The notes beneath the pieces were generated by a model. That model made no database searches, had not been told where the DNA came from, and saw only the letters and a program-made list of their open reading frames with translations. A stretch of 62,942 nucleotides of DNA, filler included, from Fonticula-like sp. SCN 57-25 (Eukaryota), in the NCBI GenBank assembly GCA_001724245.1. It is 3 parts of 3 records of this genome, joined end to end, with 100 filler letters (N's around TTAATTAATTAA, not from the genome) between each part and the next. Parts side by side here need not be neighbours in the genome. Positions count along the whole stretch, not along the records: positions 21,274 to 42,262 come from MEDX01000087.1; 2 more parts are not named here. The stretch is one strand, 5' to 3'. The position numbers and the translations under genes were made by a program. Shown in pieces: positions 18,485-60,111 of this stretch (its first letter is position 1; each line of letters opens with the position of its first letter).

Positions 18485-21173
18485 TCACATTGCCTCGTCG
18501 TCCTGCGCCTCCCCCTGAGCCTCGCCCGCATGGCCCACGAGCGCCCAGTCGTCCTGGTCCATCTCCTGCTCCATGCCCGCGTGATCAGTACACCACATAA
18601 GCCCCTCATTGACGAGCACAACAACGTTTGGCGCCAGCTGCCCCGCCGGCACAGTGAGCGGCTCTGGCTTGTCGCGCGTGATGCGGACGACGCCTTCGCC
18701 AGCAGCCGACACGCTCTTGATCATGCGCAGCCGCTGCCGGTCGACAAGGCTCCCCTTGCTGACAATGACAACATGCTCGGTCGTGACGGCAAACATCCAC
18801 GGCACGTCTGCGCCGCCACCGGACCCGCCCTTGAGCTTGGCGAACCCGCGGGCGGCCGCCGGTGCGGCCATCCACTCGACGAACGCGAGCATTGACTCGT
18901 GCGCAAACCGCCCACCATCAACCTTTTTGAGGAGCGCGGCGGCGGTCGCCTCGCGCGCGTTGTACGGCCGCAAGACGCCATCTACGGCAAAGAAGCGCGG
19001 CGTCCGCACACGCTGCACGAGCGTGCCTGACCCGCCGCCGGCGACCATGTCGGCCGTGTTCTTGATGCCCGTCGTGATGTGCGACGCGCCGTCAAACACG
19101 CCAACGACCGGCTTGGTGACGAGGCCGGCCACGCCCTTGCCGACGCCCTTGAAAAAGCCGCCGACGCCCTCTGACTTGGCGCCCTGCACGGGCTGCAAAA
19201 ACACGCCGGTGACACCGCTGCCGACGCCCATGGCAATAGACTTTGCGCCCGCCGCCATGCCCGTCAGCACGTTGGTCGCCGAGCCTGAGCCGGTGGACGC
19301 GCGCGCCGCCTTGTCGCGGCGCCGCGATTCTTGAAAGTCGGCGTCAAAGGTGGCCTCGGCGAGACCCGTGCCGACCGACGCAGTGATGCGCGAAATGCCG
19401 TCCACGAGGCCAAACACAGAGTTTTTCAGGAGCGACGCCGTGCCGCGGCCGACGCCCTTGGCAAAGTCCTGCGGTGAGCGCACGATGCCCTGGTACGGCT
19501 CGTAGAAAAAGTCGTCCACGCCCGAAGCGAGATTGGAGAAAAAGTTGACTGGGTTGCCGAGCGTGTCGACCGACAGCACGACCTTGTACAGCTCGGCGAC
19601 AACCTGCTTGGCATAGTGGTTGCCCAGCCGCGTGCCAATCTCGGGCATCGGCATGGACGCGTGAACCAGCTCGAGCGCGTTGAACCCGAGCGGCGCGTCG
19701 ACCACGTTGCCGAGCGCCGTGCTCAGCACGTTGAACACGATGCCGAGCGTGCGCACAATGAGCCGCGACGACTGCCGTGCGCGCTCGTGGTCCACCTTGC
19801 TTCCGGATGAACGCACAAAGGAAAGGTCGAGGCGGATCGGCTGCAGCTGCAGCACCTCAAAGTACACCTCGCGCGCCGCCGCTTCAGTCGCCTCACTCGA
19901 GGGCCGGATCGACGCGAGCGCCTTGCTCAGTGCCGTCGAGTTGCCTTCGCCAATCCAGTTGGCGAGCACCGTGCCGGCGTCCGAGGCGCCGTCCTGCGCG
20001 TCGCGGCCGCCCTCCTCGAGCGAGTCGCGCAGCATCTTGACGAGCCGCACGACGACCGCCTCCTCCACCTTGATCGACAGCTCCTTGAGCAGGATGCTCG
20101 CGTAGCGCACGTGCAGCACGCCCATCGAAGACGTTGCCTTGCCAAGGTCGACAATGATGACGGCGCGCAGCAGCGGGTCCTCTTCGGGGCTCGGGAGCCG
20201 CGCTGAAGAGGCCTTGCTACGCGCATTGCCGGCGCGCAGCGCGCGAGAAAGCATGACGGGGTACAGCGGCTCGTGCAGCTGGTTGTCCACCTGGATCGCC
20301 TGCAGCTGCACCTCGAGGCTTGCCTCGCTGTTGTGCGCCATCAGCATCTTGACCATCGGTCGCGTCAGCCGAATGTACATGAGCTCGCGCGGAGCCGCGC
20401 TCGAGATCGACAGGCCAATGCCGGGGAGCGACAGCGAAACGGAAAGCACATTCCGCAGCGGACTGCTGTCGCTCGAAAAGGTCGTCATGGTCGTCTGCAT
20501 CGTGCTCAGCCGCGACGTCGACTTTGACGACGACCGCATATCGGGCGTGTTGTACTCGATGTGGATATTGCGCACGCCCTGCTCGAGCGTCGTGGTCAAA
20601 ATATACTTTTTCCCGCCCGCCCGTAGCTTGCTGCGCTTCCCGATGGCCGCCGGGTCGACCGTCACATGCTCGCCGCTGCACCAGAAATCGAGGCGGCGGA
20701 GCGGCGCCGACGGCGCGTCCCAGCAGTAGGGCAGCACCTGACGCGGCCCGACCGTGTGCGTCTCGTGGCCGTGACGCATCGCCGCGGCCGGAAGTGCCTC
20801 GTCGCTTGCGCTCTCCATCCGCTCAGCGACCCACTCGGCCGACGGCTGGCCAAAGTCAAACGACTCGCGCGTGTAGTTGCGGATGCACAGCGGGGCAGTC
20901 GCACGGAGGCCGTGCACGACAATGCGGATCGTCGAGGCAACCTCGCTGCCGTCGTCGTCACATGAGATTGAAAGGCGCATAACGCTCCCGCCATTGTTGC
21001 GCGCAATGCGCACAAACATGTCACCCATTACGGACGCGGCGATCGGCGCGGACCAGCCGACAGAGTCCGCCGTCTGGATGCAAAAGTAGCGCTTGGCGGC
21101 GTCCAGTGCCCTAAAGTGCGGCACGGCGTGCTCATTCGGGCGAAGCTGCAGCATACACCCTTCGGTAACTGCT
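18485..21173 (-). CDS. VPS13: VPS13 family lipid-transfer protein, C-terminal part (5' truncated at contig end)
   Basis: PYCWDAP, LPGIGLSI..RELMY, IQVDNQL..LYPV, YFEVLQLQPI, DTLGNPV..DFFYEPYQG, PVQGAKSEGVGGFFKGVGKG..KPVVG and RVRTPR, followed by a PH-like tail. Confidence 0.93.
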
Positions 21174-21273
21174 NNNNNNNNNNNNNNNNNNNNNNNNNNN
21201 NNNNNNNNNNNNNNNNNTTAATTAATTAANNNNNNNNNNNNNNNNNNNNNNNNNNNNNNNNNNNNNNNNNNNN
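21174..21273. other. artificial contig-joining spacer (N44-TTAATTAATTAA-N44)
   Basis: Exactly 100 nt with a central 12-mer that gives stops in all six frames. Genes on both sides are cut off. Confidence 0.97.
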
Positions 21274-25634: not shown

Positions 25635-28600
25635 CTAGAATCCTCTAACATTTGTAAAGCGGTTCCGCTTGAAAAAGGCGCGCAGCCCGAGGTAGTCCGC
25701 CACCCAGCTGCCCGACGAGCCGACCTCGATGAGCGTGTTGCGGTCCATGTACGCGTCGCGGCCGGCAAAGACGCTGTCAACAAACACGTCCACAAAGTCT
25801 GGGAGAACATCAGTTTAAAGGAAAGAATAAAAGAAATAAGCGTACCAAGCTGGACGTCGGATGCTGCGTCGGCGCTTTCGTCGTCGTCGGCGCGAATGAT
25901 GACGCGCGCGTTGCCGCTGTACGGCCCGACGAGCAGGAACTGCGGAATGTCCAACACGAGGTCGTGCTTGGAGCGCGACTTTTCCTCGTTGCCGCGCGAG
26001 CGAAGCAGAGGGCGCTCATCGGGGAGCAGGATGCGCTCTAAACAAGGAAAGGTATGAGAAGCAGGGAAGGCGGGAAAGGCGGAAAAGTAGCCAAAAAGTA
26101 GCCAAAAGCAGCAAAAAAGCATCAAAAAGGTCCAAGAAACGCACCGTATTCGACGCTCTTTCCGTCGCCGCTGCCCTGCTGCACCTCGTGGATCGCATAC
26201 TCATCCAGGCGACTGGCATCCACGTGGACCGCCTCTGCGATGCGCTGCTTGAGCTCTTCTGCCGTCATGCTGTCACACCACTGCGTGAGCGACATCAAAA
26301 TATACTATAAAAAGCGCACCTGTCGGCGACTGCAATGCGCTTGTGCGCGACAAACTCGACCTTTGCGCGCGGCCGCGGCGTAATTGGCGTCAATTCCGGG
26401 TTCTCGAGGTACACCGAGATGTGCTTGGTGCCCGGCGCGGCGGCAAGCGGCGACGCCGGCGGCTCCTGCGGTGTCTTTTGCTTGTCATTAGCGCGTTTGA
26501 GGGTCGGCGACGACTTTTCCATTGTGCCGCGCGGGGGCGACTTGGCGTCGGCGCGCTTCATTGACTTTGTGTCGGTCGAGCGCTTGAGAGTTGAGAGCTT
26601 GCTGGCCTGGAGGGCGCGGGTCTCGGCAGCGTAAATTTCGCGCTGGCGAGCGGCAGTCGTCGCAGAGTCATAAATGACCTGGGGAATGTTAGAATACCGG
26701 AAAATGCGGGGAAAGGGAGGAAAAAAGAGGCAAAAAGGTGCAAGAAAGGGCAAAAAAGTGCATAAATAGTACACGAAACAAACAATAAGTATGTCAAGGC
26801 GTACATCTGACGCCTTTTGGATGACGAATCTGCACACTTCCTCTGACCCGCTTGTATTCGCCATGACCTGAATGGGCATCTCTGACGGTGCGAGCGGGCG
26901 CTCATAACAAACATTCATCGCCTCGAGGTCTCCAAACCGCACCTCGTAGAGAATATAATCTTCCTCTACTGCACCCTCCTGCCCCGCCGACGCCCTCTTC
27001 ATAATGTTATTGATGAGCCCCTGGGCCGTCAAGTGCGCGTCAATCGGCACCGACTTGTACTGGTAGTCACGCAGCGACCGCCGCCCCGACGTCGAAGCGA
27101 GCGTCGTTTCCTTTGAAAAGAATACTTGCACGACACCGTGCGGGAGCATATCAACGCGCGAGAATGGCAGGAGCGACTGCGGCGTCTTTTCCTGCGCGCG
27201 GCCAAACATCTTTCTGAGCGTGCCCGTCTTTGGCTTTTCGACCGCCGGCGCGGGCTCCTTGTCCAGAAAAGTGTCCTTGACGAGCAGGAAGCGCATGTGC
27301 TGCTCGACGCTGAGGAGCTTCCAGCGCTCAAAGGCGTCGAGCGGCTTTTCGGGCGACGCAATCTTGCGCTGGTACACAATCTTGTTGCCGGGCGCCACTC
27401 GGATCTCGAATAGGACAATGTTGCTCGCGTTCATCGAAAGCTGCTTCTTTTCAAGCACGGCCTTGATGACTTTTTGCGTGTTCATGTCGGACGAGATCTG
27501 AAGGGTAGAATAGCCGGTGAAGGCCTGGTCTTGCACCACGGTCGTGTCAAAGTGGACCTGCACAAAGGCAGTGCGGACCTCGCGAGAGCGGCGGAGCGCC
27601 TTGGGGATGACGGGGCGCGTCACCATCAGCGACGTCAGCGCTGAAAAAGAAGCATATTAGCAAAAAAAACACGACAGAAATCGACATAAAAATACAGAAA
27701 ACAACACGAAAAGACACGCCAAACAAATGCATTGCCGCATTCCGCATTGCGTACCTTCGATGACTGTACGCAGATTCTCGCGCGAAAAATCGCCATAATG
27801 CTCCGGGTCAAAGAGGCGGTACCCCATGGCAAGTCGGTCCTCCACGTCACCGTACGCGAGCCGCCCCAGCACAGTGACGACATCCTTCAAGTGAACGCGG
27901 CCGTCATGGTCCGAGTCGAAAATGCCAAAAATGCCCGTGAGCGCCTGCTCCTGCTCCTCCGTGTCAATGTCGGTGCGGAGTCGGCTGATCTCGGGCAGAA
28001 AATTGAGGAACTCGCGGCGGTCAAAGCCCTTGGGCGACTGCAAAAAGAGCAGCTTGAGACGAAGCGGGTCAATGTTGAGCATGCTTGAAAGCATCCTAAA
28101 CTGCGAAGCGGCGCGCAGCTGCTTCCGCGGGTCCTGATACTTTTCCTGGTCGTCGATCTGGCGCAGCCCTTGCTTGATGAGCTCGCGCTCCTGGTTCTTC
28201 TGCTCCATTGTGATCTGCTTGAGGCGGCGGAACTGATCGGCGGCGAACGCAGCGGCCTTGTCGGCCTCGATCTGCACGCGGAACTGCTGCTGGCGCTCGG
28301 CAAACATGCGGCGCTGCTCGCGCTTGCGGAACGCAGTCTGGATTGTGACGACGGCGCGGCGGAGCGCAACATACCTTTTACATAAATTAGCAAACACAGC
28401 ATCAACATAAACGTTTGCCCGTACTCGCGGCGCTCGCGCGACATGCGGAAGCAGCTCTGCAGCAGGACGACCAAGTGCGACACCTTGTTCTTGTAGAGCT
28501 CCTCAATCTTTATCTGCAGCTCAAACTTCATGTACAGCTTCGTCTTGCCCACCTGGTAGTCCACCTTTTCCTTGTAGCCGAGCGCCGCCAGCAGCGTCGA

Positions 28601-36200: not shown

Positions 36201-39200
36201 GGTTTCAGCGACTCCAGTCTCTCACGAATACGCGGCGTGTCGAAAAAGACGTGGAACCACTCATCGACAACCGAGATGAGGCGGCAGTACGCGTCAAAGT
36301 CTTCCGCGGCCGCGTCCAGCAAACGATCCAGCTCGGCGGACGGCACAACAGACTCGTCCGGCTGCAGCAAAAGGCGAGGATAGCGACCAATACCAAGCTG
36401 TAAGCAACGTTTAGCAACTTTAACTAGCACTGCTACCGCGCGCGTACCTTTGCCAAGAATGTGATCCACTCGTCGAGCCCATCTCCGTCCGACGGCAAAA
36501 GTGCCATGAATCCGGCATCCGCGACGCGCACTTCACACACGCCGTCAAAGACGGGCCTCACGTGCGGGAGGTAGAGGTCGATTGGCCGGCAGAGCTGCCC
36601 GCGCTGGTCCGGAACCAGCAGCAGTGAGCCAAGGGCCTCGGCGGGCTCCTCCGACCCCGTATCCAGAAGGCTGACGTGCCGGCGGACGTACTCGAGGAGC
36701 AGCCAGAACGCCTTGCGCGACGGCGCGCTCTGCGGTAGGATCTGCACGACAAACTTGGCGAGCGTGCGGTCGTCAGGGACGGCGATGCCGAGCCGTGCCA
36801 GAAAGGTCGTTGTGCGGCTGTTGACCGTCTCAGGGTCCATGAGATGCGGCGCCGCCCACGCGCGCAACGCATCGGCGTCCGGCGGCAGAGATTGAAAGAT
36901 GGCCGCTTTCCTGTCGTGCAGCGCCACCAGCGAGCCGTCGGCGAGGCGAAGACACGCCGTCTTAGCCAGCTCGACCGCGTGCTCGTCCAGGTCATCCAGG
37001 CGGGTCTGCAGGAGCTCGTAGACCGTAGCGAGGCTCTCAGACGGCTTACTGGCCAGAGGGACTGCCTTGAGCCACGCGACCACATCGCCGACGCCAAGCT
37101 CGCGGACGTGCAGCTTGCGCATCGCCAGGTTGCGGTCAAACGACTCGGCGACCCACTCGCGGCCAACGGCAACCAAAAGCTCTTCGTTGCTGATGAGGTT
37201 CTCTGCGCTACGGTAAGTCACCAAGCGCTCGCTATTTGTGCGTACCGTATCCTGGCGCTGTCAGGAGCACGTCTTTTGGGGCGGCGAGCTTGCCCGACAC
37301 GGTCGGGATGCACGCCTCCGTCGCGATGAGGTTCCACAGCTGCTCGACCATGGCGCGCCAAAAGTTGTCCGAAACGTCGTCGGGAGACGGCAGGAACACA
37401 TGCATGAGCGAGCGCACGTGCTCGTCGGCGTGCAGGCACTCGACGAAAAAGGGCGCAATCTGGTCGCGCAGCCAAAGATTGACCGGCTTGCCGTGGTGAA
37501 TATCCTGCCGCGACGTCACAAGCTCAAAGTCGGCCTGCACGATAAAGCGCAGGCCGGCCTGTTTCACAGGGAGGTAGCAGAACACAAACTGGCCGGGGTA
37601 CGTCGACCCGGGCGGGAGGACGGGGAAGGCAAGCGCAAGCTCGGCGACCATCGGGCGCGACTCGTCCTGCAGCAAAAAAGGCGGCACAGTCAAGCGCTTG
37701 CGATGAACCCTGCACACAAAAAGGCAAGTTAATACACTCTTCGCGTCTATTTTGAACGCATTTTTACGTACTTGAAGTTGAGCCGCGAGTGCTCGCCGGT
37801 GGCCATGTTTCGAATCGAAAGAGTCGTCAGCAGGTCTTCGCGGGGCGACACAAGCTCGATTTCCTTGGCAAACGACGTCTCGACGCCGTCGTCATTGAGC
37901 GAAATGAGCGTGACGCCGAGTCGACGGAGGCGACGAAGAAACAAGAGGATGTGGTCGACGCCGCCGACGTCGGCCATGATCTCCTTGTCGAGCTGGTGGT
38001 CGGCGCGCAGCGGCAAAAAGATGCGCGTGTCCTTCCACCCGCTACCGTCCTCTGCAAACTGCCACGTCGGGACAAGGGAGGCCAAGTCGCCGTCGGACAG
38101 GTTGGACGCCGGCTGCGGAACAATGTGTCCCAGCGGCGCCTGCGAGTCAAAGTTGAATGCAAAATTGCGCGAAAAGATAAACGGCCGGTCAGAAACTTTA
38201 AACACCGACTTGAAGCCAACGCCCTTGCGGCCAATGTGCACTTCGGCGTCCGTCTTGGTGGAGCCGCCAATGTCGCACAGCGCGACCACGTTGGCATTGC
38301 GGAAGCCAACCTCGTTGTTGGACGAGAGCACATAGCCACCCGTGGGCCGCAGATTAAGCTCGAGGTGAAAGCTCGGGAGAACCTGGCTCTCGTACGAGTT
38401 GTCGTCGGCGTTCTGGATGAGCTCGACCACAAAGCGCGATGATGACGAGTAAATGTCGGACGCAAGCTTCTGGATCGCGCTTGTGAGCGTTGTGTGCAAA
38501 CTCGAAAGGCACCCGCTCATGTGCGGCGGAATGTCCAGGTCAAAACCGCGACGGCGGCGCAGCCAGGCAATGAGGTCGCGTGGGTTGAGCGCCTCAATGT
38601 CGCTCTTGGAAAGGTTCTCGGTGATCGGGGGCGATGCGTCGGGAGGCGAGGGTGCAGCGGCGGCCGCGACGACAACACTAGTTGACGGTTCAGCAGAGAC
38701 ACTGACAGGCGCAGTGTGTGGCTGGCTCACAGGCAATGCTGGCGCTACAGCGGCAGCGGCGGCGGCTCGCTGGGCGCGAAGGAGCAGATGTTCGAGGCGC
38801 TCCTTCTCCCCCATCATGTCTTTCAGCTGCTCTTGGCTGCGCTCCAGTTCAGCGTCAAGCGCTTCAATGCGTTGTTCGGCGTCCTTCAAGCGACCTGCGT
38901 AAATCTCGACGGTGGCTTGATACTGCTTGAGCACCTCCTCGGTGACGCGCTCGTCCGTCGCGGCGATCTGCGACGCCAGCGTTTCCATCTTTTTTACGGT
39001 GAGCATCGTCTTTTCGTGCCAACCACGCTGTTTTTCAAGTCGCGTCGTGCGAAGGCGCATTTCGGCCAAGTAGGCAACCTGCGCGATCGCCGTCGCATTC
39101 AAAAATTCAGTCATTGCCCTACCACATGTGTGAGAAAGTGGCCACGTGAAGGGGAGAGAGCGCGCACTTTTCCGCCTGGGCTTGCGCCCGTGCCGCGCCG

Positions 39201-39670
39201 GGGAACCGGTTCACTGCTACCAATGGCGTGCTGTGCTCAAGCGAGCGGCAAATGCTTTCTAGCTGCTGATGCGAGGTCAGCATTGCTACCATCCGCTCCT
39301 CGAGCAGCGCATAGCGTGGCAGGTCGATCTTGAGCGAGTGAAGATGCGCATCCGCAGCCGCTTGCAGGTACACCTCCACGTCGTTTGTCAAAGCAAGGTC
39401 ACACGCAATCTTTCCGTTTGCATCGCGCATGTCGAGGGGAGCCCCCAGCCGTACGAGAAGGCGCGCGATCTCATAGTAGCCGAGGCACGCGGCCCAATGC
39501 AGCGGGGTGCGACCTATCGAGTCGACCTCGGCCAGCACTTCGGCGCTGTTGGCCAATTGCGCCACGCGCTCAAACTGACCGTCAGCGACTGCATGGTGAA
39601 GGATCGAGGCGGAGCTATCCTCCTTGAGCTCTCCCGCCAAGTGCGCGATCGACTCGTCCTCGTCCTGCAT
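33253..39670 (-). CDS. ankyrin + coiled coil + sacsin/NO VEIN-like GHKL ATPase + C-terminal DUF3883 (NOV_C) protein
   Basis: Ankyrin GRTPLHWAA. An intron at ~39119-39167 joins it in frame (AEK-AMTEFL) to FVVELIQNADDN, NNEVGF, ALCDIGGSTK, HIGRKGVGFKSVF and FCYLP..FIVQADF..SRQDI..NLWL. The C-terminus has LGYDFEY..FEVKG..ISDNEW. Confidence 0.82.
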
Positions 39671-39890
39671 CAGCACGCTGACTCACTGAATTGGTGTGAT
39701 TGGTTGATTTTTGAGGAGTAGGCCGATTCGACCAATGGAGCTTTCGAGCAGAAGCAAGTGCACAATATGGGTATGCCACACTTTATATGTTGCAAATTTA
39801 TGGCAACGCAGATACAAAATCGTATAGAAGATGGGCGTTAAGCCAAAACCTATTATATACAAACAATAAATTGTCAAATGAGCCTCATCG

Positions 39891-42105
39891 TCAAATGACG
39901 AGACTGGCGTCGTCGGGGATCTCGAGCAGCCGACGAATATCCTCGTCGTTGAAGCCGAGCATATACAGCACAGTGGCAAGGCTGCTGTCGTTGACGCGGA
40001 ATGGCGCCCTCTCCTGTACGATGGGCTTGGCGCGGAACGCGACCCCGACGCCGGCATCGGCGAGCATCAAGAGGTCATTGGCGCCATCGCCGACGGCCAG
40101 GATCTGCGACCTGTCTATCCCGTGCTTCTCCGCAAGCATGTTGAGCACCTGGGCCTTGCGCTTGGCGTCCACAATGTCGCCCACGACCTGCCCCGTAAAG
40201 TTGCCGCCAGCGTCCACTTCCAGCGTGTTGGCAAAGCAATAGTCTAGGCCAAGCACAGACTTTATGTGCTCGGCAAGCGGCAGGAACCCGCCCGACACCA
40301 CGACAAGGATGCACCCCAGCCGCTTGAGGCTGCGGCATAGCGTGAGGGCGCCGTTGGTGAGCTCGAGGTTATCCCGGACAACGTCAAAGTACGACGACGG
40401 GTGACCACCAAGCAGCTCGACGCGCTACGCAACGACGCGTGAGCAGGAGAATGTGACAAGAAAAAGAAACGTACCTTGCGCAACGACCATTGAAAATCGA
40501 GCTTGCCAGACATGGCTTCGGCCGTGATCTGGCTCACTTGAGCTTGCTTGCCGGCGAGGGCGGCGAGCTCGTCAATGACCTCCTGCTGGATGAGCGTCGA
40601 GTCCATGTCAAACAGCACGAGTCGCTTGTGGCGCCTAAACACATTCTCCTTTTGCAAGTGAATGTCAATCTTGTACGACGTCGCGAGCTCCCGCAGCGAG
40701 AGGCTCAGATCCGCGGTGATCTCGGGCGTCTCGGGGATGCCGACGCTCATTTCGAGTGCGCGGCAGCACCGCTCTGACAGCCGCTTCGTGCTCAGGACGG
40801 CGACGCCATAGTGAATGAACAGGTTGACAGTGTCCGACAGCGCCTGCGCCGAGATATCCTCGGGCGCAACGAGCGTGACAACAAAGTTGGCGCTCGGGTC
40901 AAGCCTCTGCTGCAGCTCGGGCTCGGCGAGCGTGTGGTCGCTGTTAATCGAGAGGCGTAAGCAAATGCAAACAAAAAAATTTAATACAACGCACGATGCA
41001 GACGGGATTTCAAAGTTGACGACGGCGTTCAGCCTTGCCGCGTCTTCCGTCAGCTCGCGAAAAACGTCCACGTCGTCCGAGTGTAGGGCGACGAGCGCGC
41101 CGACCGTCATTGCGTGGTGCACGCGCGCGAGGCTCACGTCGTGTATGACCGACTTGTACCTGGCGAGCGCGCGCACCATGCACCCGAGAATATCGGTGCC
41201 CTGGGACCCCGTGACGGTCACAACGATACGCTGGGCGAGCTTGGGCGACTGCTCGGCGCGCTGCGACGCGGCTGCCTTGAACAGCTGCAGCGGCCCCGAC
41301 GACGATGACGTGGACGTAGGCCCGTTCGCGGCAAACACGGCGCTCTGAAGGATGGCGGGAGTGTCCTCGTGCTGGACGCGGGGCCTCTTTTGCGGCGCCG
41401 ATGATGCGGCAACCTCGGACACCAGGCGCGACTTTAACTCGGCCAACGACAGGTTCTTGGTAACGGGAAGCATCGCAATGCGGTATAAATACGACGAGCG
41501 GATATTCAAATTCGTGTGCTTTTCGAGCTTTTTGAGGATCTTGATTATTCCAGTGTAGTTGAGCACCACAAAGTTTTCGAGCGACACGATCCGCTCGAGG
41601 AGCGCGTGCGAAGCTGCGCTCGCCTCAGTTTCGCCCGGTCCTACTCGCCGCACTTAGCATACTACAAAGGCTAAAGTATACCGCACCTTCAGCGTGCGAA
41701 GCGGTCCGCGTGCGTGAGCTTTCCTGCTCCTGCCGGGCAGCGCGGATGGCAGCGACCTCTTCCACGTAGCATGCGTTCAGGCGGAGCACCTGCGAGTCGA
41801 GCTCGGTCAGGAAGAGCACAACCGAGCTATTCAGCAGATCTAGGCGCTCGTGCACCAACTGGGGAAAGTTGGGCACCAGGATCGAGTCCAGGGAGGACCC
41901 GGCCGCCGTGTAATCTTTGGGAAACCATGCAGAGCCCGTGCGCGTCCGCAGCGGACGAATGATGCGCTTGAGGGGCTGCAGAGAAGAGAGATCAGAGATG
42001 CCAAAGGAATGGTAACAAAGTTCGCACCTTGTACTCTATGCTTGCGGTCCGGAACGGCTCTTCGAGCTGCGACCGCCGCTCCTCGAGGTACTTGCCGTAC
42101 TTCAT
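39891..42105 (-). CDS. SPX domain fused to ACT-ACT-HAD phosphoserine phosphatase (SerB-like)
   Basis: SPX: MKYGKYL, YKPLKRII (after splicing), FLTELDSQV..N..Y and LENFVVLNYTGIIKILKKLEK. ACT-like segments VVTVTGSQG and FVVTLVA. HAD motifs FDMDSTLIQQEVIDELA, VSGGF, K in DAKRKA, and GDGANDL..AKP. Confidence 0.9.
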
Positions 42106-42262
42106 GCCAGCGGTGGGCACAACCTTGGCAACAACAGGGCAACAACGTCGCACGCGCCAAATCTCACGGGGCAACGGGATATTCGAATCATTACGGATCA
42201 GACCACGTGGATGGTATCATTACGCCCCTCTGCAAAGTGCGCGGCAAGCGCGAGTGCCCGCG

Positions 42263-42362
42263 NNNNNNNNNNNNNNNNNNNNNNNNNNNNNNNNNNNNNN
42301 NNNNNNTTAATTAATTAANNNNNNNNNNNNNNNNNNNNNNNNNNNNNNNNNNNNNNNNNNNN
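42263..42362. other. artificial contig-joining spacer (N44-TTAATTAATTAA-N44)
   Basis: Identical 100-nt design to the first spacer. Confidence 0.97.
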
Positions 42363-43171
42363 GGACGCGCTAAGGTTCAAGTAGTGCCACCTAAGATCAA
42401 ATGCAAAAAAAGAGCGTTCAGTATGTATGCTTGTAGCCAATAAAGGGGCAGCGCACATTTGCCCGCTGACGCGGCCAATGAGAGACGCAGTCACTCGACC
42501 AAAGTTGTTGGAAAGCGAGGGCTGGGAATTCCAATTCAGTGTGGAAATATCCCTATGAAAAACTCATCGGTTAATCAAGCGTCGCATAAATTAAAAGGAT
42601 GTACCATGAAACCGTAGGAGCGTCTGCCCAAATTGTCGAGGGAATTCCCAGCATGTCCGGATTACACACTCCTAAATAGTTCGATTGGTACATGAAGACT
42701 TGAGGGGTTCCCGAGGCGCAAAACTTGGCGGTGTTGGGCTGCATCGCGCCAGTCGCAATGTGAGCACAACGTTTTACTATAACCCAACGCGCACCGCAAA
42801 AGAAGTGAAGTCGAATTGCCAATAACTAATCATCGTCGGCGCTGATCCAGTGCCCCAAAAGTACGTGATCGATGTAGCCCCTATCGTGGGATTAGCATTG
42901 GGAATACGACGAAAAAGATCAACACAATACAAGAGCCGGCTCGTACATCCGTTTGCGTTGGGGATGCCAACGGGCCATCCGACTGTGGGTGTGCTACTCC
43001 AGGTGCTAGCCGCCGTTACGGCGTATGCCTTGCTGTTGTTCGCAGCAGTGGCTAGCAATACAGGTTAGAATAGAGCCACGCTGCCATCAACAAAAAGTAC
43101 GTACAGAGCGACACCAAAACCGCCAGCAGCGCGGCGAGGAGCACCCTTCGCGCCCTCCATCCGCCGGCCAT
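42363..43171 (-). CDS. putative secreted/surface protein, 5' part with several short exons (3' truncated)
   Basis: ATG at 43171 gives MAGGWRARRVLLAALLAVLVSL, which resembles a signal peptide. An intron GTACGT..CTAAC..TAG splices it in frame to STAANNSKAYAVTAASTWSSTPTVGWP. Further GT-AG introns follow. Confidence 0.55.
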
Positions 43172-43848
43172 TTTTTTGTGTGGAGAGGACCCTGACAACA
43201 GTTATGGAAAATTTTTGCCCGTTCGCCTCCTTGAATTGGCAAAGACCGGATGGCCAATGGCGATCGTTCTTTGCATCATTCCAGCCAATCATGGATGAGT
43301 TGCAATTTGCTGATGCCAAAATAACAAAACAATCCAGATCGTACATGAAAGGATCTAGATTGACTTTTGTCGAATCTCGCTCAATCGCTAAATCGACCAG
43401 ATCGACGATTGAGAGAGCGGTACATGCGCACCAAACTGACTATATAATGCTTGTCCCTGATGTAATTCATCTTTATGTAGCAGTTCCGAGCACACGAACA
43501 TGTCAGATAGCCTCATTATGGGCACCTTCGCCCACACCCCTAGGCAACCGCAGGGATTTTACTCGTGACTGGATTGATCAATTCGGGTAACCTTGTGACA
43601 GCATTTTTTTGCTCTTCAGTGTTCGCTTGTACTGCGCATGTAGCCACCTGTAGCTGGCCGGTGATGGCGTGTCAGGCACACCTCACAGATGCCGTTCATG
43701 AGATGATGGAATGAGCGTTCTTTCTATTGCTTTTCCGCACAGCAGGGCTGCGATTCAGACTATATGATCACGTGGGTGGTTTGCAGTTTGCAATTTTACG
43801 TGCTGCTGCTGCCAGCAGCAGCGGAAAGCGGCAAGAGTGTTCGCAATA

Positions 43849-45997: not shown

Positions 45998-46182
45998 CAT
46001 CCATATTCATCATCATTATTCATCACTTTTTTAAACAGTCCCTTATATTGGTTAAAGGGTCTATTTGGATTCTTATCCAAATATCATAGTGACTCGCTAG
46101 CCATACTTGGACAGGCTAGCGTGTCATATACATTCATGTGTCTCTTTGAGACTCGTATGTGACGTCGAGCATGATGCTTAAG

Positions 46183-46256
46183 CAGACACGTGACGTCATA
46201 CTGCCCTTTCGCCATTGGCAGACACGTGACGTCATGCTGCCCTTACGCCATTGGCG
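46183..46256 (+). repeat. ~37-bp direct duplication carrying CACGTG, TGACGTCA and an ATTGG (CCAAT) box
   Basis: CAGACACGTGACGTCAT-CTGCCCTT-CGCCATTGG occurs twice in tandem. Confidence 0.8.
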
Positions 46257-47096
46257 AGCTTGTCCTCGAAAAGTTCGAAGAGCTGCCCGTGGTTGAAAAG
46301 GCCGCCTTTTCTATTCGTGCAATACGCGGCTTTCGAGGAGCGGTTGGCGATGTTGCTCAAAAATTCCTCCCAGGAGCGGTCGTTGCATGCAATCCCTTCC
46401 ATGGGGTCGGGTCACGTGCGCGGGATCGATGTGCCAGAATGACGTCATCAGGGCTTTCCACAAAGAAAAGAGTGCCTTGCAGTGCTTGAAGCGCGACTTC
46501 ACAACGTCCGCAGTGAAGAGCGAGGCGTCGAGAGTCTCGCTTTTGGTGAGGGATCACGTGACGCGTTGTCACGTGGTCAGTTGACGCGCTGACACGTGGC
46601 CAATTGGAAATTTGCCGTTTGCCTTGTACGCAGACAATGTTTTTTTCAGACCGTGTGTGCGCGTCGAATGTTGAGGTCTGCCAGCAAATGGGTCAGATTC
46701 ACGTGATTGTAATCACGTGATCTGTGTCGAGCGCGTCCTGAAAGAAGATGGCATTTTCGTCGCCAATCCGTCGATCCCCCTCAGCCGTTCTTGAGGGTCG
46801 AATCCGGCGAGCCTGATAAAATTGTGGCACATCCTTCAATAATAATAAAGGAATAAATTATTCATAATTATTATTCGAATTTTGAAACCAAATGGACCCT
46901 TAATTTTTTTCGTTGTGCCTTTCTTATTGATTGCCTTTGTATTGATACGGGGTTTCATGCTCTCGTGACTGCAATTTACCTTGTGATGATTTTCGCATGT
47001 CACGTGACTATGATCACGTGTCATAGTTTGAAAGCTGTCACTTTGCAAGAGCTTTGCAGGGCGGCGCCCGGGAAAGAGTGAAGAGTGCTTGACGCG

Positions 47097-49429: not shown

Positions 49430-52400
49430 CTATACAATCCTCTGCTTCTTCACCTCCTTCTTCCCCTTCCCTCCCTTCTTCCCTCCCTTCTTCCCCTCCT
49501 CCTCCTCCCTCTCAATCTCGACGCCCACGACCCCCTTCTCCTCCGCGCGCCGCACCGCAAACGCCATCGCAGCCCTATTGAACCCCATAGCATCCTTATA
49601 CTGCCCCAAAAGCCGCTGCGCACTCGCCCCGACACTCGCCAGGGCAGGTCGGAAGGCGCGGTTGGACACAATTTGGGCCTGGTGGACACCCACGACAAAG
49701 TGCAGCACGCGGCAGCACAGTTCAGCGTTGCGGCCACGTGATAGCCAGTCATCCAGATGACGTAATAGTGCGTGCACGTGGCCAAACGACAAAAGCAAGA
49801 GTGCTGATTCGAGCTCGCTGGCGCGCACGCTGGCAAGGACAGACAACAAATAGGCACTCGAAGAAGCGCAGCCAGAGGCAACAACAAGAGGGTGAAGTGC
49901 CCCTGAATCCGCCCCTGAATCTGCCCCTGAATTGTCACCTGAATCCGCCCCTGATGCGATATCGAGTGCTTCAATGAGCCGGTCTGCGGCGCCGAGCGAG
50001 GCTGCGGCGGGCGGCGGCGCCAGAGACGATTCCGTGTTTGAGACGTTTTCTGCGGCCGATGCGTCGAAAAGTGACTCGAGCTGCTTTTCGCGCTCTTCGT
50101 CGAGGAAAAGTTGCTCGTCGGTGCGTTCCCAGACGCGAAGGGAGCGGTCGTGCGAGGCGGAGACGATAAAGTCGCCGCGGGAGCTCACACAGAGGGACCA
50201 GACGGCGCCAAAGTGGCCATCAAGCGTCAAAATCATTTCAAACTAGGAGAGAAATGGGGTAAGTCGGGTGAAAAGGGGTGAAAAAAGAAGAGAAATGACA
50301 TAAAAGTGGTCAAAAGCGATGAAAAATGAGTCAAAAAAACACACACAAAAAGTGACAAAAAGTGACTGAAATGACCAATTTGACCCAAAAATAACACAAA
50401 ATGACACAAAAACAACCATTTTACACCCAATACACACAAACATAAAAACATAAAAACATACTTCCCTTCCTTTATTCCTTCCTTTCTTCTTCGTACCTTG
50501 TCCGCGTCCCACTCCTTGACGAGTCCATCCTTACCCGCCGACCAAAAATAGTGCGTCCCCGGCACAAACCTCACCGCCATCACACTATCTCCATGCGCAT
50601 GCATCGACTTGTGACAGTCACCGAAATCCAAGCCCCACACCTTTACGCTCTTATCCGCACTCGCACTCACAAGCAGCCCACTATCAAATGATATGTCAAG
50701 TGACAGCGCAGGCAGCTTGTGGCCGTAAAGTGATAGGAAGAATTTTAGAGTGTCGACGAAAAAGACTTTGATTGTCGCGTCGAGAAGGCTGAGGGCGAGA
50801 AGGCGGCCGTCGGGGGAAATGCGGACGCAAAGTACGTCATCGGTCATGGTAAGTGTACGTGTATGAACAATGCTCAGCGTCCTCGTGGCAGCAGAAGTAG
50901 TGTTTGTGGTAGTAGAAGTGCCAGAAATAGCACCTGAATTGCCAGAAATAGAAGCAGAAGTTGACTCTGAAAGTTCAAATTCCCAAAATTTCACGTGCTT
51001 ATCAGCCGATCCAGTGACAAATTGCTTACCATCTGGGCACAGCGCAATAGACCAAATGGCGCCTTCGTGTGCTGCTTCAGAGTGAATAAGAGTCGAAGAG
51101 GCAATGTCGTGTAGTTCAAGGTGGCCGGATTTGGTGCCGATGAGCACGTGACGGTTGCCGGGGACGAAGATGAGGCAGAGGGCGTAGCCGCAGGGGAGAG
51201 TGCGGATGCAGGAGCGAGTCTTAATGTTCCAGATCTTGAGCGTATCTGAACAAGTATTAGTGCAAATTGCAAACTGAATGGAATTATACATGGTGATATG
51301 ATGTGCACAATGATACAAAGGATATACACTTACAGCACAACTGACCATGTACGACAATGATACAGCAACATGTGCAAACTGCAAACTGACACTGCTTTTC
51401 CCGCCATTCAACTTCACACATGATCACACACATGATCCCATACATGATCTCATTCATGATATCCAGATCCCACACATGATCCCTGATCCCACACATGATC
51501 CCATACATGATCCCTGCCCTAGTCGTACCGCTGGAAGCAGAGGCAAGCATTTGGTCGTCAGACGAGATGGCGACTGTGCGCACGTCGGTCCTGTGACCCG
51601 GCAGCTCGACCGCCGTCTGCAGCTCGGCGGAAAAGATCTTGCCGTCAGGGACGACGCTGTGCATCTCGAGCGTGTTGTTGTGAAGCGCGCACAAAAGAGA
51701 GTACTTTTTGCCGTTGTCGACGGCGCGGACGTCAACTGAGCGGATCTTGGCGGATGCGCGCACCGATCCCATCGTGACGATGAGATCGGTGGCGGTCAGT
51801 GTGACATCCTCCTCATCGGCATCGGGCTCATCGTCATCGTCGTCGTGAGCGTCGTCCTGTGCCTTGTTGGCGGCCGCAGTGGCCTTTTCGCGGCGGCGGC
51901 GGCGCTTCCGAAGCATTTTCTTGCGCGTCTCGGCCTCATCGAGGATGCGAAAGATCTCGACGGTGCGATCGGCGCCCTGGCAAAAGAGATGGCGGCCAGA
52001 GGGGTCGACCTTGATCGTGAGGACGCGCTCGGTCGAGCCCTGGCGGTTGAGTGTGCCGAAAAGGGTGCAGGCGCGCATTTCCTTGTCGTCGGCGTCGGCA
52101 TCGGCGTCGGCATCTTCGAGATCGCCGCTGATGTTGACGCGAGGGACGCGCGAGATGGAATCGCTCAGGCGATCAACGTCCATCTTCCACACGTGGATGA
52201 TCCCGTCGGCGCAGCCGGCATAAAGAGTCTTTTCGTCGGGTGAAGCCGTGATGCTCCACACCTCGCCGCGATGCCCGACGAGCGTCTCGACGCAGTGCTG
52301 CGCCTCGAGATCCCACGCCTTGATCAGATTGTCCTTGCTCGACGAGATGACGTAGCGCCCGTCGCCCACAAAGATGAGGCCAGTCACCATGTCCTTGTGG

Positions 52401-52834
52401 CCGCGCAGGCGGAAGAGGCCCTGCTCGGAGAGGACATCCCACAGGATGACGCACGTGTCCTTGCCGCCGCTCGCTAGCCGCGAGCACGTAGCATCAAACG
52501 CGAGGCTCGTGACGGCGCCGCGATGACCCGTAAAGACGATCGAGTATGTGTTTGTCTCGAGGCTCCAGAGGCGAATGACGCCGTCCGCGTAGCCGACCGC
52601 GACGAGAGACGCGCGATCCCCGTGCCCGCGCGCGAGGCATGTCACCTCGGAGCGCTCGCCACGCCACGTGGTGCGCTCTGTGCCGCGGCGCGTGTCCCAC
52701 AAAACAACATTCTCGCACGCCGCAGAGATGGCGAGCTTGCCGTCTTCGTCAAAGAGAGCAGCGGGGCTCGCCTCGTGGCCGACGACGAGGCCAAAGGTGC
52801 CGAGCGCCTCGTACCGAAGATACGACTTTACCAT
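49430..52834 (-). CDS. WDR3: WDR3/Utp12/Dip2 SSU processome WD40 protein
   Basis: MVKSYLRYE start, GLFRLRGHKD, LPGHRTDVR, LKFFLSLYGHKLP, WGLDFGDCHKS..AH, SHDRSLRVWERTDEQLFLDEEREKQLE, and a Utp12 C-terminal domain (KDAMGFNRAAM). Confidence 0.95.
51410..51515 (+). repeat. intronic ~12-bp CATGATCCCAYA tandem repeat
   Basis: Repeated CACATGATCCCA/CATGATCYCA units inside a WDR3 intron. Confidence 0.75.
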
Positions 52835-53157
52835 GCACGCTGCACCGCCGCACTGTCCGCGAGTGTCACAGTTCAATTGCGTTCCGGAATTGTCGATCCG
52901 GAAGTGTCGATCCAGAATCGAGTTGATCGCGATCAGGTTGGAATGCATTATTTTTTGAATCGTTTGGTGGGGAACTTTCACTGCCTTTGAAAACAGCAGC
53001 GGCCCGCCGCCTCCACGATCGCACGACGCGCGCACGCCTGGCAGTGATCTGGATGGACGCGCAGCAATAGCCATTTGAAGGAATTTGAATTAAGTTGTAG
53101 TTAATTAGCTGATCGTCAGTCGTTTGTGAATCGGACCATCTTACCGCATTGCCCGCC

Positions 53158-57318: not shown

Positions 57319-57706
57319 TTATGAACTGCCGACGCCGCCGTAGCCATAGGCAAGCAAGTGCGGGTGCGACGGCACAAACCGCGCCGCCGCGCCATTCTGC
57401 GCCACCGTCGGCGACGACCCCTGACTTCCCGCCCACGGCGGCGTCAAAGCACCCGAAAATGCCGTCGGCGTTGACGGCGCGCTAGGAAGGCGGCCGCTCG
57501 CAATCATGATAGGGACCGGCGGAGGCGCAGAAGTGGAAAGTGAGGACGGTTTTGACGACGTTGATGATGACGTAGGCGATGACGTCATGTCGACATCTGA
57601 AGAAGTGTTGTCGAGAAGAAGGCCGCCGACGCCGAGGCTGACGCGGCGGGGGCGGCGCGATTGGCCAAACTCGACCAGGTTGGGCTCGCTCTTGCTGCCC
57701 CTCAAC

Positions 57707-57738
<32 letters not shown>

Positions 57739-59310
57739 CTGTGATTGGTAGCGGTGGCTGAATGTGGGCGAATGGCCGCTCGAATAGGCCGCGGGCGCTT
57801 CGGCGGCGGCGGCGGCGACGACCGACAAGGGAGGAAGCATCGCGCGGCGGTTATTATTCTCGGCAAAGAACTGGAAAAGTTCAAGGTCGGTTTCGGCCGC
57901 GCCACGTGGCCCAAAGGCAGGTGACGCCGCGGCGGAGGCGGGGTCGGCGGAGCGCTTGAGGTCGGCCTCGGAGCGGCTCATGCGCAGCCGCTTTTGGGCG
58001 ACCTGCGGGCCTGATGACGTCGACGATGACGTCAGCGATGTGATGGACGGCAGCGAAAAGGGCGATGAAAGGGATGTTTTCATGCCGGATGCGCGCGGCG
58101 GCGGCGCGGCGGAAAGCGATGGGGCGGCCGACAGCGGCGAGGAGGCGGAGGAAGAGGGGGCGGTGGCGGCGGCGGAAGAGGGCGCCGCGGCGGACGACCC
58201 GCGGCGCTTGAAGCCGCCCGGCGGCGACACGTTGGTGAGCGTGCTGTAGGGGATGGCGTCGGTGTGCGACGCGCGCGGCCAGGCCATGAGGGGCGTCGCC
58301 GACGCAGGGGAAGTCGCGGACGAAGATGTGGGCGCGGCGGAGGCGAGGCGCGCGGCGGCGGCGAGCTCATTAAACATGTCGAATTGGGGGAGCGGGAACT
58401 GGAATTGCTGCTGAAAGTGCGCGAATTGGGCTTGCTGGGCTTGAAGGGTCGCCTGCTGCTGCTGGAGCATGTACTGCTGCTGGGCATGCTGATGCTGCTG
58501 CGCGGCATGCTGATGTTGAGCATGCTGATGTTGATCGAGGTGCATGTGCTGCATGACGCGGTCCTGCATGGAAATGCGGCTGTCCTGGCCCCAGTCGGGC
58601 ATTGCGGCGGCGTCGGGGGCGACGTGCAGCTCGGCGTGGGCGTAGAGCTGCTGGACGTTGCTGAAGCGCTTGCCGCATCCGGATGCGGGGCACAAAAAGG
58701 GCTTGCTCGCGGCGTGAAGGGAGAGGTGCGCGTCAAAGGAGGCGCGGTCGGGGCAGGCCTGGCCGCAGACGTGGCACAAAAGTGGGGGGGATGCCGACGC
58801 CGATGCTGATCCCGATGCCGATCCCGACGGCAGGGAGGATGCCGAAGGCGATGTCGATGTCGCGGTGGCGGCGAGGCGCTGCGCGCTGTTGGCGTGGCTG
58901 CGCAGGTGCTTGCTGAGAATGTCCATGCGGGCAAAGCGCTTGCTGCAGCCCGGGACGGTGCACGGGTACGGCTTCTCGCCCGTGTGGCTGCGCAGGTGCA
59001 TGATGAGCTTCATCTTGGTGCTGAATGCCTTGCCGCCACGAGGGCAGTCGTGCCAGTGGCAGCGGCCGGACGTCGGGTCGCTGTTGCTCACGCGGCTCAC
59101 GTGGAATTCCATGACGTGGCGGGCGAGCTGCGTGACTCCTTCAAAGGTGCGATCGCACAGCACCCAGCGGCAGGCGATGATGCCGTCGTCGCCATCGTCG
59201 TCATCGCCAGCGGCGGCGGGAGGGGGGGAAGCGCCGCGCGCGGCGGCGGGGGGCGCGCCCGGCATGGGCACGCTGGGGGCGGTGTCCGTCGGCGAACGCG
59301 TCACGGCCAT
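57319..59310 (-). CDS. Gli/Zic/Glis-like C2H2 zinc-finger transcription factor, intronless
   Basis: CRWVLC..HVMEFHV, CHWHDCPRGGKAF..HLRSHTGEKPYPCTVPGCSKRFARMDILSKHLRSH, two further fingers, and polyQ/Ser/Ala low-complexity regions. Confidence 0.85.
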
Positions 59311-60111
59311 CAGACAAAAGTAGTCGATAGAAAAGGAAGGGGATCCCGCCGGAAAGGGCTCACAGCAGCTTCAATCGGAAGAGACAAAACCCGAAAAAAA
59401 TCTCTTTTCTCCCGAAATTTCACCAACCCTCACTGCAGTTTTTCGTGCTCGGCCCTTGTCTCTAACCTCGGATATCGCGCTCGCACCGCGGCAGCCGAAA
59501 CCCGATCGCGTCGAAAAGAAGAAAAAGCACCGCCCTTCTCTTGGCAGAGCGGGTGTGTGGGTGGGGGGTAGAGGGGGCACTCGCGGTCCACCCAGCAAGT
59601 AATAAACAACGCTCATCCCGATTGGTTGAAAAAAGTGGGCAACATGCGGAAAACGCCAAATTAGTCGAATCTAATTGCCTTATATGGATGGGTTTACCTC
59701 TATTTTTGTCTAAAAAAGGGGAAAAGTCGCTTCGATGTCGTGTCATGGTTGTTCAGCGCGCTTGAGACGGTCCGGCAACGGGCGTTGAGACGATTTATCA
59801 GGTGATCGTCCGATGCGTATTTTTAGACGGCGCCAGTGGGCGTGTCGGGCACAACATTCTTCATTCCATAACTACGCGGCGCATAACAAGCGCATAACTG
59901 AGGCCAGGGACCGATTCGGCAAGCCTAGGGGAAGGGAAGGGAGGGAAAAAAAAGAAAAGGTGTTTCAAATATGAATATGTGTCTATAGGGGGGCTGAAGC
60001 CAGGCTGAATGACGTACATTTCATGACTGTTGTTGTACATATGGGCAGTCCCCTTGGAATTCAAAGGGAACTGAAAGGGAATTCAGTGTATCATATGAGC
60101 ATACCATACAA

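Follow-up and report, generated by a model that had tools for sequence, protein, structure and literature searches.

In eukaryotes, the inositol-pyrophosphate signal that reports phosphate status is commonly received by SPX domains, the known outputs of which comprise transporters, polyphosphate polymerase, a cyclin-dependent kinase (CDK) inhibitor, ubiquitin ligases, glycerophosphodiesterase and transcription-factor traps. Phosphoserine phosphatase (PSP), in turn, catalyses the last step of the phosphorylated serine pathway, in which inorganic phosphate (Pi) is released. The gene considered here unites both modules. It lies at positions 42105-39891 on the minus strand of a 62,942-nucleotide stretch of DNA from Fonticula-like sp. 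SCN 57-25 (assembly GCA_001724245.1), the whole of which is referred to as the window. Its five exons and four introns yield a protein of 670 amino acids (aa), in which an N-terminal SPX domain is followed by a disordered linker, the domains ACT1 and ACT2, and a PSP of the SerB type; gene and protein are termed SPX-PSP in the following.

Closest Described Systems

Among the described SPX proteins, Vtc4, Gde1, Pho81, Pho87/90/91 and XPR1/Syg1 share with the window's protein an N-terminal SPX domain carrying the Y/K/K and K/K/K clusters, but differ in output: that of the window's protein is a HAD phosphatase of amino-acid biosynthesis, equipped with ACT domains. Vtc4 is the yeast polyphosphate polymerase and Gde1 a glycerophosphodiesterase, the latter likewise being a soluble hydrolase with a phosphate-containing reaction product. 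To our knowledge, none of these proteins acts in amino-acid metabolism. The best solved match to positions 1-196 of the family SPX profile is provided by rice SPX1 and SPX2 (7e40 and 7d3y), with an E value of 1.8e-5 for the alpha-4 region of the window's protein; the plant proteins consist of SPX alone and bind PHR transcription factors, whereas the SPX of the window is covalently joined to an enzyme.

On the enzymatic side, SerB2 of Mycobacterium avium (3p96/5is2) and SerB2 of Mycobacterium tuberculosis (MtSerB2) share the ACT-ACT-HAD body and motifs I-IV with the window's protein, but are bacterial and devoid of SPX, while the ACT2 of the window lacks the conserved loop glycine. MtSerB2 is reported to be regulated by L-serine via ACT-dependent shifts between active and inactive oligomers (PMC4270767, PMC10564941). 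By analogy, such ACT-dependent oligomer changes are likely to be the lever for any added SPX control. The stand-alone fungal PSPs (Saccharomyces cerevisiae Ser2 type, ~300-490 aa, found in Dikarya and many chytrids) possess an orthologous catalytic domain of the same eukaryotic clade but are without SPX and ACT1, and precomputed Pfam matches indicate no ACT domain in them.

The closest counterparts of all are fungal, SPX-bearing database entries named 'phosphoserine phosphatase', which feature the identical domain order as well as the same SPX binding residues and PSP motifs. The window's protein differs from these fusions of named fungi by a PSP identity of ~56%, a degenerate ACT2 and a branch outside their group. 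Full-text literature searches, with subscription journals and supplementary tables outside their scope, retrieved no paper with a title or abstract on the SPX-PSP fusion, and the word 'phosphoserine' is absent from recent reviews on phosphate signalling in fungi and mycorrhizae. This agrees with the preliminary description of the locus, according to which SerB is not among the well-characterised SPX partners; nor was it found among the partners treated in the searchable literature.

SPX and SerB Modules on One Polypeptide

The gene model comprises the following features, given from 5' to 3' of the gene:

39891..42105, minus strand: whole coding region, from the ATG at 42105 to the end of the stop at 39891 (end-to-end alignment with fungal SPX-ACT-PSP proteins)
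42028..42105, minus strand: exon 1, aa 1-26, SPX helix alpha-1 and start of alpha-2, MKYGKYLEE...IEYK (family N-termini are all MK[FY]G[KNR]Y)
41976..42027, minus strand: intron 1, 52 nucleotides (nt), GTGCGA...CTGCAG
41687..41975, minus strand: exon 2, aa 27-122 plus 1 nt, SPX alpha-2 and alpha-3 (alignment and SPX sub-profile)
41641..41686, minus strand: intron 2, 46 nt, GTGCGG...GAGTAG
40995..41640, minus strand: exon 3, SPX alpha-4 to alpha-6, disordered linker and ACT1, uninterrupted (Pfam SPX and ACT_6 on the same open reading frame)
40941..40994, minus strand: intron 3, 54 nt, GTGCGT...TAACAG, in frame, stop-free and read through in the 463-aa open reading frame
40475..40940, minus strand: exon 4, ACT2 and the N-terminal PSP part with motif I, Glu458 and SLRK (M. 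avium SerB2 alignment)
40425..40474, minus strand: intron 4, 50 nt, GTACGT...GCGTAG
39891..40424, minus strand: exon 5, remaining PSP domain (motifs II-IV), C-terminal tail and stop (TIGR00338; SerB2 alignment)

All four introns (52, 46, 54 and 50 nt) are of the GT..AG type, with GTGCG donors in three of them and GTACGT in one. Since exon 3 alone carries SPX alpha-4 plus ACT1, the fusion is independent of the splice model. In addition, a stop-free frame of 463 codons (40262-41653) spans the C-terminal SPX helices, ACT1, ACT2 and HAD motif I. Judged by these frames and alignments, the locus is confirmed as one real gene, with the SPX and SerB modules on one polypeptide.

Coordinates and strand given in the preliminary description match the ATG at 42105, the stop end at 39891 and the minus strand exactly, and its claim of a single spliced frame is borne out by exon 3, which joins SPX alpha-4 to ACT1, and by the five-exon product of 670 aa. 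All motifs quoted there were recovered as well: MKYGK (aa 1-5), YKPLK (aa 25-29, across intron 1) and KILKKLEK (aa 156-163) in the SPX domain, and DMDST (aa 449-453), SGG (aa 537-539), K583 within KRKA and GDGAND (aa 605-610) in the HAD domain.

Domain Architecture

The spliced protein is divided as follows:

41408..42105, minus strand: SPX domain, aa 1-200, including introns 1 and 2 (family profile 137 bits; SPX chains of the Protein Data Bank, PDB)
41234..41407, minus strand: linker rich in Ser, Ala and Pro, aa 201-258, of low conservation (13.5% identity to the family)
40940..41233, minus strand: ACT1, aa 259-338, ligand loop TGSQGTD, including intron 3 (ACT_6, 31.5 bits)
40640..40939, minus strand: ACT2, aa 339-438, divergent, loop glycine replaced (APEDI) (ACT_PSP_2, 16.6 bits, below cut-off; SerB2 alignment)
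39939..40630, minus strand: PSP (HAD-IB) catalytic domain, aa 442-655, including intron 4 (TIGR00338, sub-profile and SerB2 alignment)

On unspliced pieces, Pfam SPX reached 27.9 bits in a partial open reading frame (cut-off 27.8), ACT_6 31.5 bits (cut-off 23), HAD 61.8 bits and Hydrolase 61.5 bits, while ACT_PSP_2 on ACT2 stayed, with 16.6 bits, under its 24-bit cut-off. The NCBIfam equivalog model TIGR00338 (serB) scored 161.9 bits on exon 5 alone, compared with a cut-off of 144.15, and the upstream open reading frame contributes a further 71 bits. Sub-profiles for SPX, ACT and PSP, made from 19 fungal homologues and run on the spliced protein, assigned 137 bits to SPX (residues 1-200, profile positions 1-184 of about 186), 94 bits to ACT1 plus ACT2 (residues 259-438, positions 3-187) and 277 bits to PSP (residues 442-655). 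The SPX, ACT_6, HAD, TIGR00338 and sub-profile scores lie well outside the range of chance.

These assignments are matched by solved structures. Exon 3 finds the SPX chains of rice SPX2 (7d3y) and SPX1 (7e40), Chaetomium thermophilum (5ijp), Vtc3 and Vtc4 in the PDB. Exon 4, including ACT2, aligns to residues 91-226 of M. avium SerB2 (E 8.9e-16) and gap-free to residues 3-55 of Methanocaldococcus jannaschii PSP, and exon 5 aligns to residues 228-389 of M. avium SerB2 (E 4.6e-34). Of the two ACT-like domains proposed in the preliminary description, ACT1 thus stands above the ACT_6 cut-off, while ACT2 is a weak match that falls below its Pfam cut-off, yet aligns to SerB2.

An AlphaFold2 model of the Rhizophagus member of the family, calculated from a 19-row alignment, attained a mean predicted local distance difference test score (pLDDT) of 71.2 and a predicted template-modelling (pTM) score of 0.43. 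It comprises a confident helical SPX (1-185), a disordered stretch (187-256, pLDDT <50), two beta-alpha-beta-beta-alpha-beta ACT folds and a HAD domain. In Foldseek comparisons the model covered ~400 columns of the 396-residue M. avium SerB2 chain (E 1e-32, 34% identity) and matched M. jannaschii PSP with a template-modelling (TM) score of 0.90. Predicted docking of the Rhizophagus SPX (1-186) on its ACT-PSP body (255-657) gave a score of 0.00, which is evidence neither for nor against such an interaction.

The Phosphoserine Phosphatase Active Site

The active site had been described as complete, and motifs I-IV indeed all align to SerB2 or M. jannaschii PSP:

40595..40609, minus strand: HAD motif I, DMDST, with the nucleophile D449 and D451 (ungapped to positions 11 and 13 of 1f5s)
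40287..40295, minus strand: HAD motif II, SGG, S537 in VVSGGF (SerB2 alignment)
40152..40163, minus strand: KRKA with the motif III lysine K583 (aligned to the SerB2 GKA lysine)
40074..40091, minus strand: HAD motif IV, GDGAND, aa 605-610 (SerB2 alignment)

Furthermore, E458 and R494 (in SLRKRV, across intron 4) fall on E20 and R56 of M. jannaschii PSP (1f5s_A), which we take to recognise the serine moiety of the substrate. By homology, the gene encodes the organism's SerB/Ser2-type phosphoserine phosphatase, which follows the SerB2 plan plus an N-terminal SPX domain.

Conservation of the SPX Ligand Site

The binding clusters of SPX domains were reportedly first described by Wild et al. in 2016. 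In Vtc4, the phosphate-binding cluster consists of Y22, K26 and K133 and the lysine surface cluster of K129, K132 and K136; SPX domains bind inositol hexakisphosphate (InsP6) and inositol pyrophosphates (PP-InsPs) via both clusters, and mutations in them are reported to blunt signalling (PMC9911596). The equivalent residues are located in two motifs of the window's protein:

41967..42039, minus strand: IEYKPLK, spanning intron 1; Tyr25 and Lys29 correspond to Vtc4 Y22 and K26 of the phosphate-binding cluster
41519..41542, minus strand: KILKKLEK; K156, K159, K160 and K163 correspond to Vtc4 K129, K132, K133 and K136 (5iit_A alignment)

The lysines were mapped from the range matched in 5iit_A (exon-3 query 17-61 on chain 113-157), assumed to be ungapped. 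On this basis, six of six Vtc4 positions are kept, namely Y25, K29 and K160 of the phosphate-binding cluster and K156, K159 and K163 of the lysine surface, in line with the earlier statement that the ligand-binding residues are retained.

Conservation was followed in 40 rows, i.e. the window's protein and 39 others, including three near-duplicate pairs. The residue at position 25 is Tyr in 37 of the 38 rows having an N-terminus, and position 29 is Lys in 33 of 38 (plus two Arg, two Thr and one Ile). Lys occupies positions 156 and 159 in 39 of 40 rows each and position 160 in 38, the other two having Arg, while position 163 is Lys or Arg in 38 of 40. By comparison, overall identity within the family (20 rows, five partial rows dropped) amounts to 46.8% for SPX and 84.4% for PSP. 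Retention of the six ligand positions in a domain that is less than 50% identical overall speaks for a functional SPX.

A Conserved Family, Mainly of Early-Diverging Fungi

A word-seeded search with the 463-aa open reading frame returned 117 proteins, 24 of which, besides the window's own open reading frame, carry PF03105. HAD families are present on 23 of these 24, and the 23 proteins (536-725 aa) all stem from named fungi. Their hosts include the arbuscular-mycorrhizal fungi (Rhizophagus, Diversispora, Funneliformis, Ambispora and Geosiphon), Mortierella/Linnemannia/Gamsiella/Gryganskiella, Chlamydoabsidia, Gongronella, Halteromyces, Endogone and Jimgerdemannia, as well as Spizellomyces, Powellomyces, Blyttiomyces and Thamnocephalis. 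A profile search adds Coemansia, Smittium, Catenaria, Sorochytrium, Podila and the ascomycete Saitoella. Taken together, the fusion occurs in Glomeromycotina, Mortierellomycotina, Mucorales, Endogonales, Spizellomycetales, Blastocladiomycota, Kickxellomycotina, Zoopagomycotina and the ascomycete Saitoella. Colinear SPX-ACT-PSP proteins span 613-810 aa, with Rhizophagus irregularis (657 aa), Ambispora leptoticha (642 aa), Coemansia asiatica (671 aa), Catenaria anguillulae (683 aa) and Saitoella complicata (613 aa) as examples, and the family entries bear names such as 'phosphoserine phosphatase', 'HAD-like domain-containing protein' or 'hypothetical protein'.

An exhaustive profile search over 1.84 billion representatives yielded 11007 matches at E <= 1e-3. 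The best 150 of these include nine proteins with all three modules and seven more SPX-bearing fragments; because a fusion of the window's degree of divergence would score ~500 bits and thus be included, this list should be near complete for fusions at this clustering level. The locus had been put forward as the window's strongest candidate for an undescribed system, a view that is not supported in this form: the architecture recurs in nine or more named fungal lineages, and databases already contain it with SPX Pfam matches. By its architecture, the gene belongs, as a divergent member, to a conserved family mainly of early-diverging fungi that is catalogued but functionally uncharacterised.

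Fungal PSPs without SPX are likewise widespread. Among the best 120 of 5313 matches, the short PSPs (<361 aa) nearest to the PSP domain of Rhizophagus belong to Neocallimastigomycota, Chytridiales, Gonapodya, Synchytrium, Amoeboaphelidium, Neoconidiobolus, Bifiguratus and numerous Ascomycota, and the Batrachochytrium PSPs (417-432 aa) lack SPX as well. No named short PSP from Glomeromycotina, Mortierellomycotina or Mucorales appears in these best 120 of 5313, truncated models being possible; a fusion that serves as the sole PSP of these three groups fits this result, if only loosely. Judging by its distribution, SPX was either gained early and lost repeatedly or gained several times, and the trees do not decide between the two.

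Two further observations concern particular members and relatives. The Taphrinomycotina yeast Saitoella (P0244/P0388, 613 aa) keeps the fusion, and its PSP groups with those of the early-diverging-fungus fusions, not with other ascomycete PSPs. Moreover, 20 of the best 150 of the 11007 matches combine tandem HAD and PSP in the absence of SPX: in these proteins of 607-1664 aa (P0252, P0257-P0259, P0261-P0263, P0265, P0266, P0269-P0272, P0274, P0277, P0278, P0283, P0290, P0318 and P0381), a second, divergent PSP-like HAD is located upstream of (ACT2)-PSP. Two of them come from the EukProt and MMETSP transcriptomes. This different PSP architecture of other eukaryotes is apparently undescribed.

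Divergence and Placement of the Window's Copy

In blastp, residues 1-659 of the window's protein align to P0021 with 35.3% identity and 414 bits; P0239 and P0241 are matched as well. The MAFFT alignment is colinear, and the three sub-profiles match in family order. With an overall identity of 29.5-37%, the window's protein is nevertheless the most divergent member of the family. By domain, its identity to the family amounts to 32.5% for SPX, 35.7% for ACT1, 20.5% for ACT2 (which is 64% identical within the family) and 56.0% for PSP, individual fusion-family PSP domains ranging from 54.7 to 57.5%.

In PSP-domain trees, a eukaryotic clade is set apart from the bacterial SerB2-like enzymes (support 97-98), and within it the fusions of named fungi form one group (16 rows, support 96; 19 rows including Saitoella, support 82). 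The position of the host was approached through the WDR3/Utp12 product encoded at 51284-53089, whose best named matches (40-43% identity) are from chytrids, Funneliformis, Coemansia and Paraphysoderma, identity to any named protein being no higher than 43-44%. A WDR3 tree of 23 rows places the window on the opisthokont side, outside the 14 sampled fungi and in a polytomy with Fungi and Metazoa, and an approximately unbiased (AU) test does not reject Fungi plus window as one clade (p-AU 0.388). Going by this placement, the organism is an opisthokont of a deep branch, with no close relative among annotated organisms.

Proposed Regulation and Its Alternatives

Serine synthesis is regarded as a Pi-releasing 'source', with a predicted increase in flux when Pi is limiting (PMC7864628). 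With this in mind, the protein may be viewed as a SerB2-type PSP whose SPX domain reports Pi status to the enzyme, a proposal to which we assign an even chance as a whole. The SPX domain would bind InsP6 and the PP-InsPs InsP7 and InsP8, as other SPX domains do, and would thereby report the cellular Pi status. Occupancy by PP-InsP would then probably alter PSP activity, either via a SerB2-like equilibrium of active and inactive oligomers or via docking of SPX on the ACT/PSP body. As to direction, the weakest part of the proposal, we would guess that the PP-InsP-bound SPX restrains the phosphatase under Pi-replete conditions and that Pi starvation releases it, since Pi-liberating processes generally switch on when PP-InsP falls. 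Such a release would increase both the recycling of Pi from phosphoserine and the output of serine. By analogy with other SPX proteins, the idea that PP-InsPs may control serine synthesis and the liberation of Pi is reasonable and well motivated.

Several points weigh against this proposal. In the gene model, splice junctions 1, 2 and 4 are set by homology and consensus only. Moreover, judged by its distribution, SPX is dispensable for PSP function, because many fungi, including most Ascomycota, manage with SPX-less PSPs. Within the family, the metagenomic member P0248 has the sole degenerate ligand site (F, I, V, D, K and N at the six positions), and Saitoella has Thr in place of K29. In PSP trees, the window's PSP is found on a long branch (0.96-1.05) in the basal eukaryotic polytomy, not grouped with the other fusions; constraining it to group with them costs 12.3 log-likelihood units, and their monophyly is not rejected by the AU test (p-AU 0.123). 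As for the direction of control, the opposite sign, i.e. PP-InsP activating PSP for serine supply when Pi is plentiful, is nearly as plausible.

A last point against the proposal is the ACT2 loop of the window's copy (APEDI), in which Asp replaces a glycine shared by all 19 family rows (NQNGL-type), while the ACT1 loop TGSQGTD retains its glycines. In MtSerB2, the ACT glycines G18 and G108 are reported to be required for L-serine binding (PMC4270767), the ACT2 position of the window corresponding to G108 only by way of the M. avium SerB2 alignment. Its replacement suggests relaxed or altered amino-acid sensing by ACT2 in this lineage. Since the ACT2 ligand loop is degenerate, amino-acid feedback in the window's copy would probably operate through ACT1 only. 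Hence, the earlier picture of an enzyme 'doubly gated' by phosphate and amino acid is weaker, and indeed doubtful, for this copy.

The best-surviving alternative, though unlikely, is that SPX is a ligand-independent appendage, serving oligomerisation, stability or localisation, or else a decaying relic, and that the protein is an ordinary serine-feedback PSP. It would account for SPX-less PSPs being the rule in many fungal lineages, for the one member with a degenerate binding site and the loss of K29 in Saitoella, and for SPX being the least conserved folded module of the family (46.8% as opposed to 84.4% for PSP). It does not readily explain why 33-39 of 38-40 rows retain the ligand residue at each of the six sites, although they come from lineages in which SPX is otherwise <50% identical, nor why the full six-helix SPX profile is matched and the SPX of Rhizophagus is predicted with high confidence.

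It is less probable that SPX acts mainly outward, in the manner of the plant SPX1/2 with PHR or of yeast Pho81, capturing a partner protein (for instance a kinase, a transporter or a transcription factor) when bound to PP-InsP, while the PSP/ACT body informs on serine or phosphoserine or serves as a scaffold. The best solved relatives of the family SPX, rice SPX2 (7d3y, 4e-19) and SPX1 (7e40, 2e-16), which rank above 5ijp, Vtc4 and XPR1, point in this direction, and the long flexible linker would let SPX reach partners. On the other hand, likeness to the plant SPX1/2 chains is no evidence for shared partners, and the neighbourhood suggests none, the flanking ankyrin and sacsin-domain genes being unrelated.

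Still more improbable is a signalling phosphatase, in which the HAD substrate would not be free phosphoserine but inositol pyrophosphates recruited by SPX, or else phosphoproteins. SPX domains concentrate PP-InsPs, and activities of MtSerB2 beyond serine synthesis have been reported (PMC4270767, PMC10564941). Against this, the protein has kept the counterparts of M. jannaschii E20 and R56, the serB equivalog model TIGR00338 is passed, and the PSP domain, which shares 54.7-57.5% identity with the fusion-family PSPs and as much as 57% with the stand-alone PSP of the fungus Arthrobotrys, lies within the eukaryotic PSP clade; the absence of named short PSPs of Glomeromycotina, Mortierellomycotina and Mucorales from the best 120 matches speaks, faintly, for the fusion as the housekeeping enzyme of these groups. 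Finally, a gene-model artefact, in which adjacent SPX and SerB genes were misread as one, is effectively refuted by the exon at 40995-41640, which runs from SPX alpha-4 through ACT1 without a stop, by the 463-aa stop-free frame from SPX alpha-4 to HAD motif I and by more than 30 colinear homologues from independent annotations.

Surroundings of the Gene

The G+C content around the locus is ~58-60%; past 42263-42363 (42-50 kb) it falls to ~0.48, from ~0.60 before. The interval 42263-42363 lies ~200 bp upstream of the ATG and consists of the linker TTAATTAATTAA, with stops in six frames, between two runs of N, and the region upstream of the SPX-PSP gene may not be contiguous with it in the genome.

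A CACGTG hexamer (Pho4-type E-box) at 42204-42209, ~100 bp upstream of the ATG, was considered as a promoter cue and rejected, the hexamer occurring 65 times in the window. This count compares with 21.5 expected, and none of 100 shuffles reached 65. About half of the copies fall into 43769-49780, where they are densest at 45232-49153, and small tandem repeats at 46182-46255 and 46559-46606 carry the hexamer; the cluster may be a repeat family or an E-box array.

Downstream of the gene, an ankyrin-repeat open reading frame (39119-39682) and a sacsin-domain open reading frame (37747-39210) on the minus strand overlap slightly in different frames and are probably exons of one ankyrin-sacsin-like gene (37747-39682). 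A Pho81-like SPX-ankyrin unit formed with the downstream ankyrin gene (39119-39682) was also discarded, as the latter is a separate open reading frame past the stop, beyond a spacer of ~200 bp. Other recognisable genes, all on the minus strand, are:

51284..53089, minus strand: WDR3/Utp12
18485..21217, minus strand: VPS13, C-terminal part
57319..59370, minus strand: C2H2 zinc-finger protein
26295..27656, minus strand: RA-domain protein

An open frame of 1112 codons on the minus strand (12383-15721) has no Pfam match at E <= 1e-4.

Implications for Phosphate and Serine Metabolism

In its strongest form, the proposal holds that SPX-PSP is directly gated by PP-InsP, as the first amino-acid biosynthetic step under SPX, and that the fusion is old, arose near the base of Fungi and was lost repeatedly, including in most Dikarya; this we advance tentatively, with a little less than even confidence. 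If it were true, Pi status would set the flux through the Pi-releasing serine pathway, and hence how much serine is available for phospholipids and one-carbon units. The fusion would then date to near the base of Fungi plus the deep-branching opisthokont lineage of the window, and would have been kept in arbuscular-mycorrhizal and early-diverging fungi.

More generally, a conserved SPX-PSP fusion would add central amino-acid metabolism to the outputs of SPX domains and would offer a soluble SPX-enzyme pair, easy to assay, in which the transmission of ligand binding by SPX could be studied. It is present in arbuscular-mycorrhizal fungi, whose phosphate economy underlies plant nutrition, as well as in the oleaginous Mortierellomycotina and in Mucorales.

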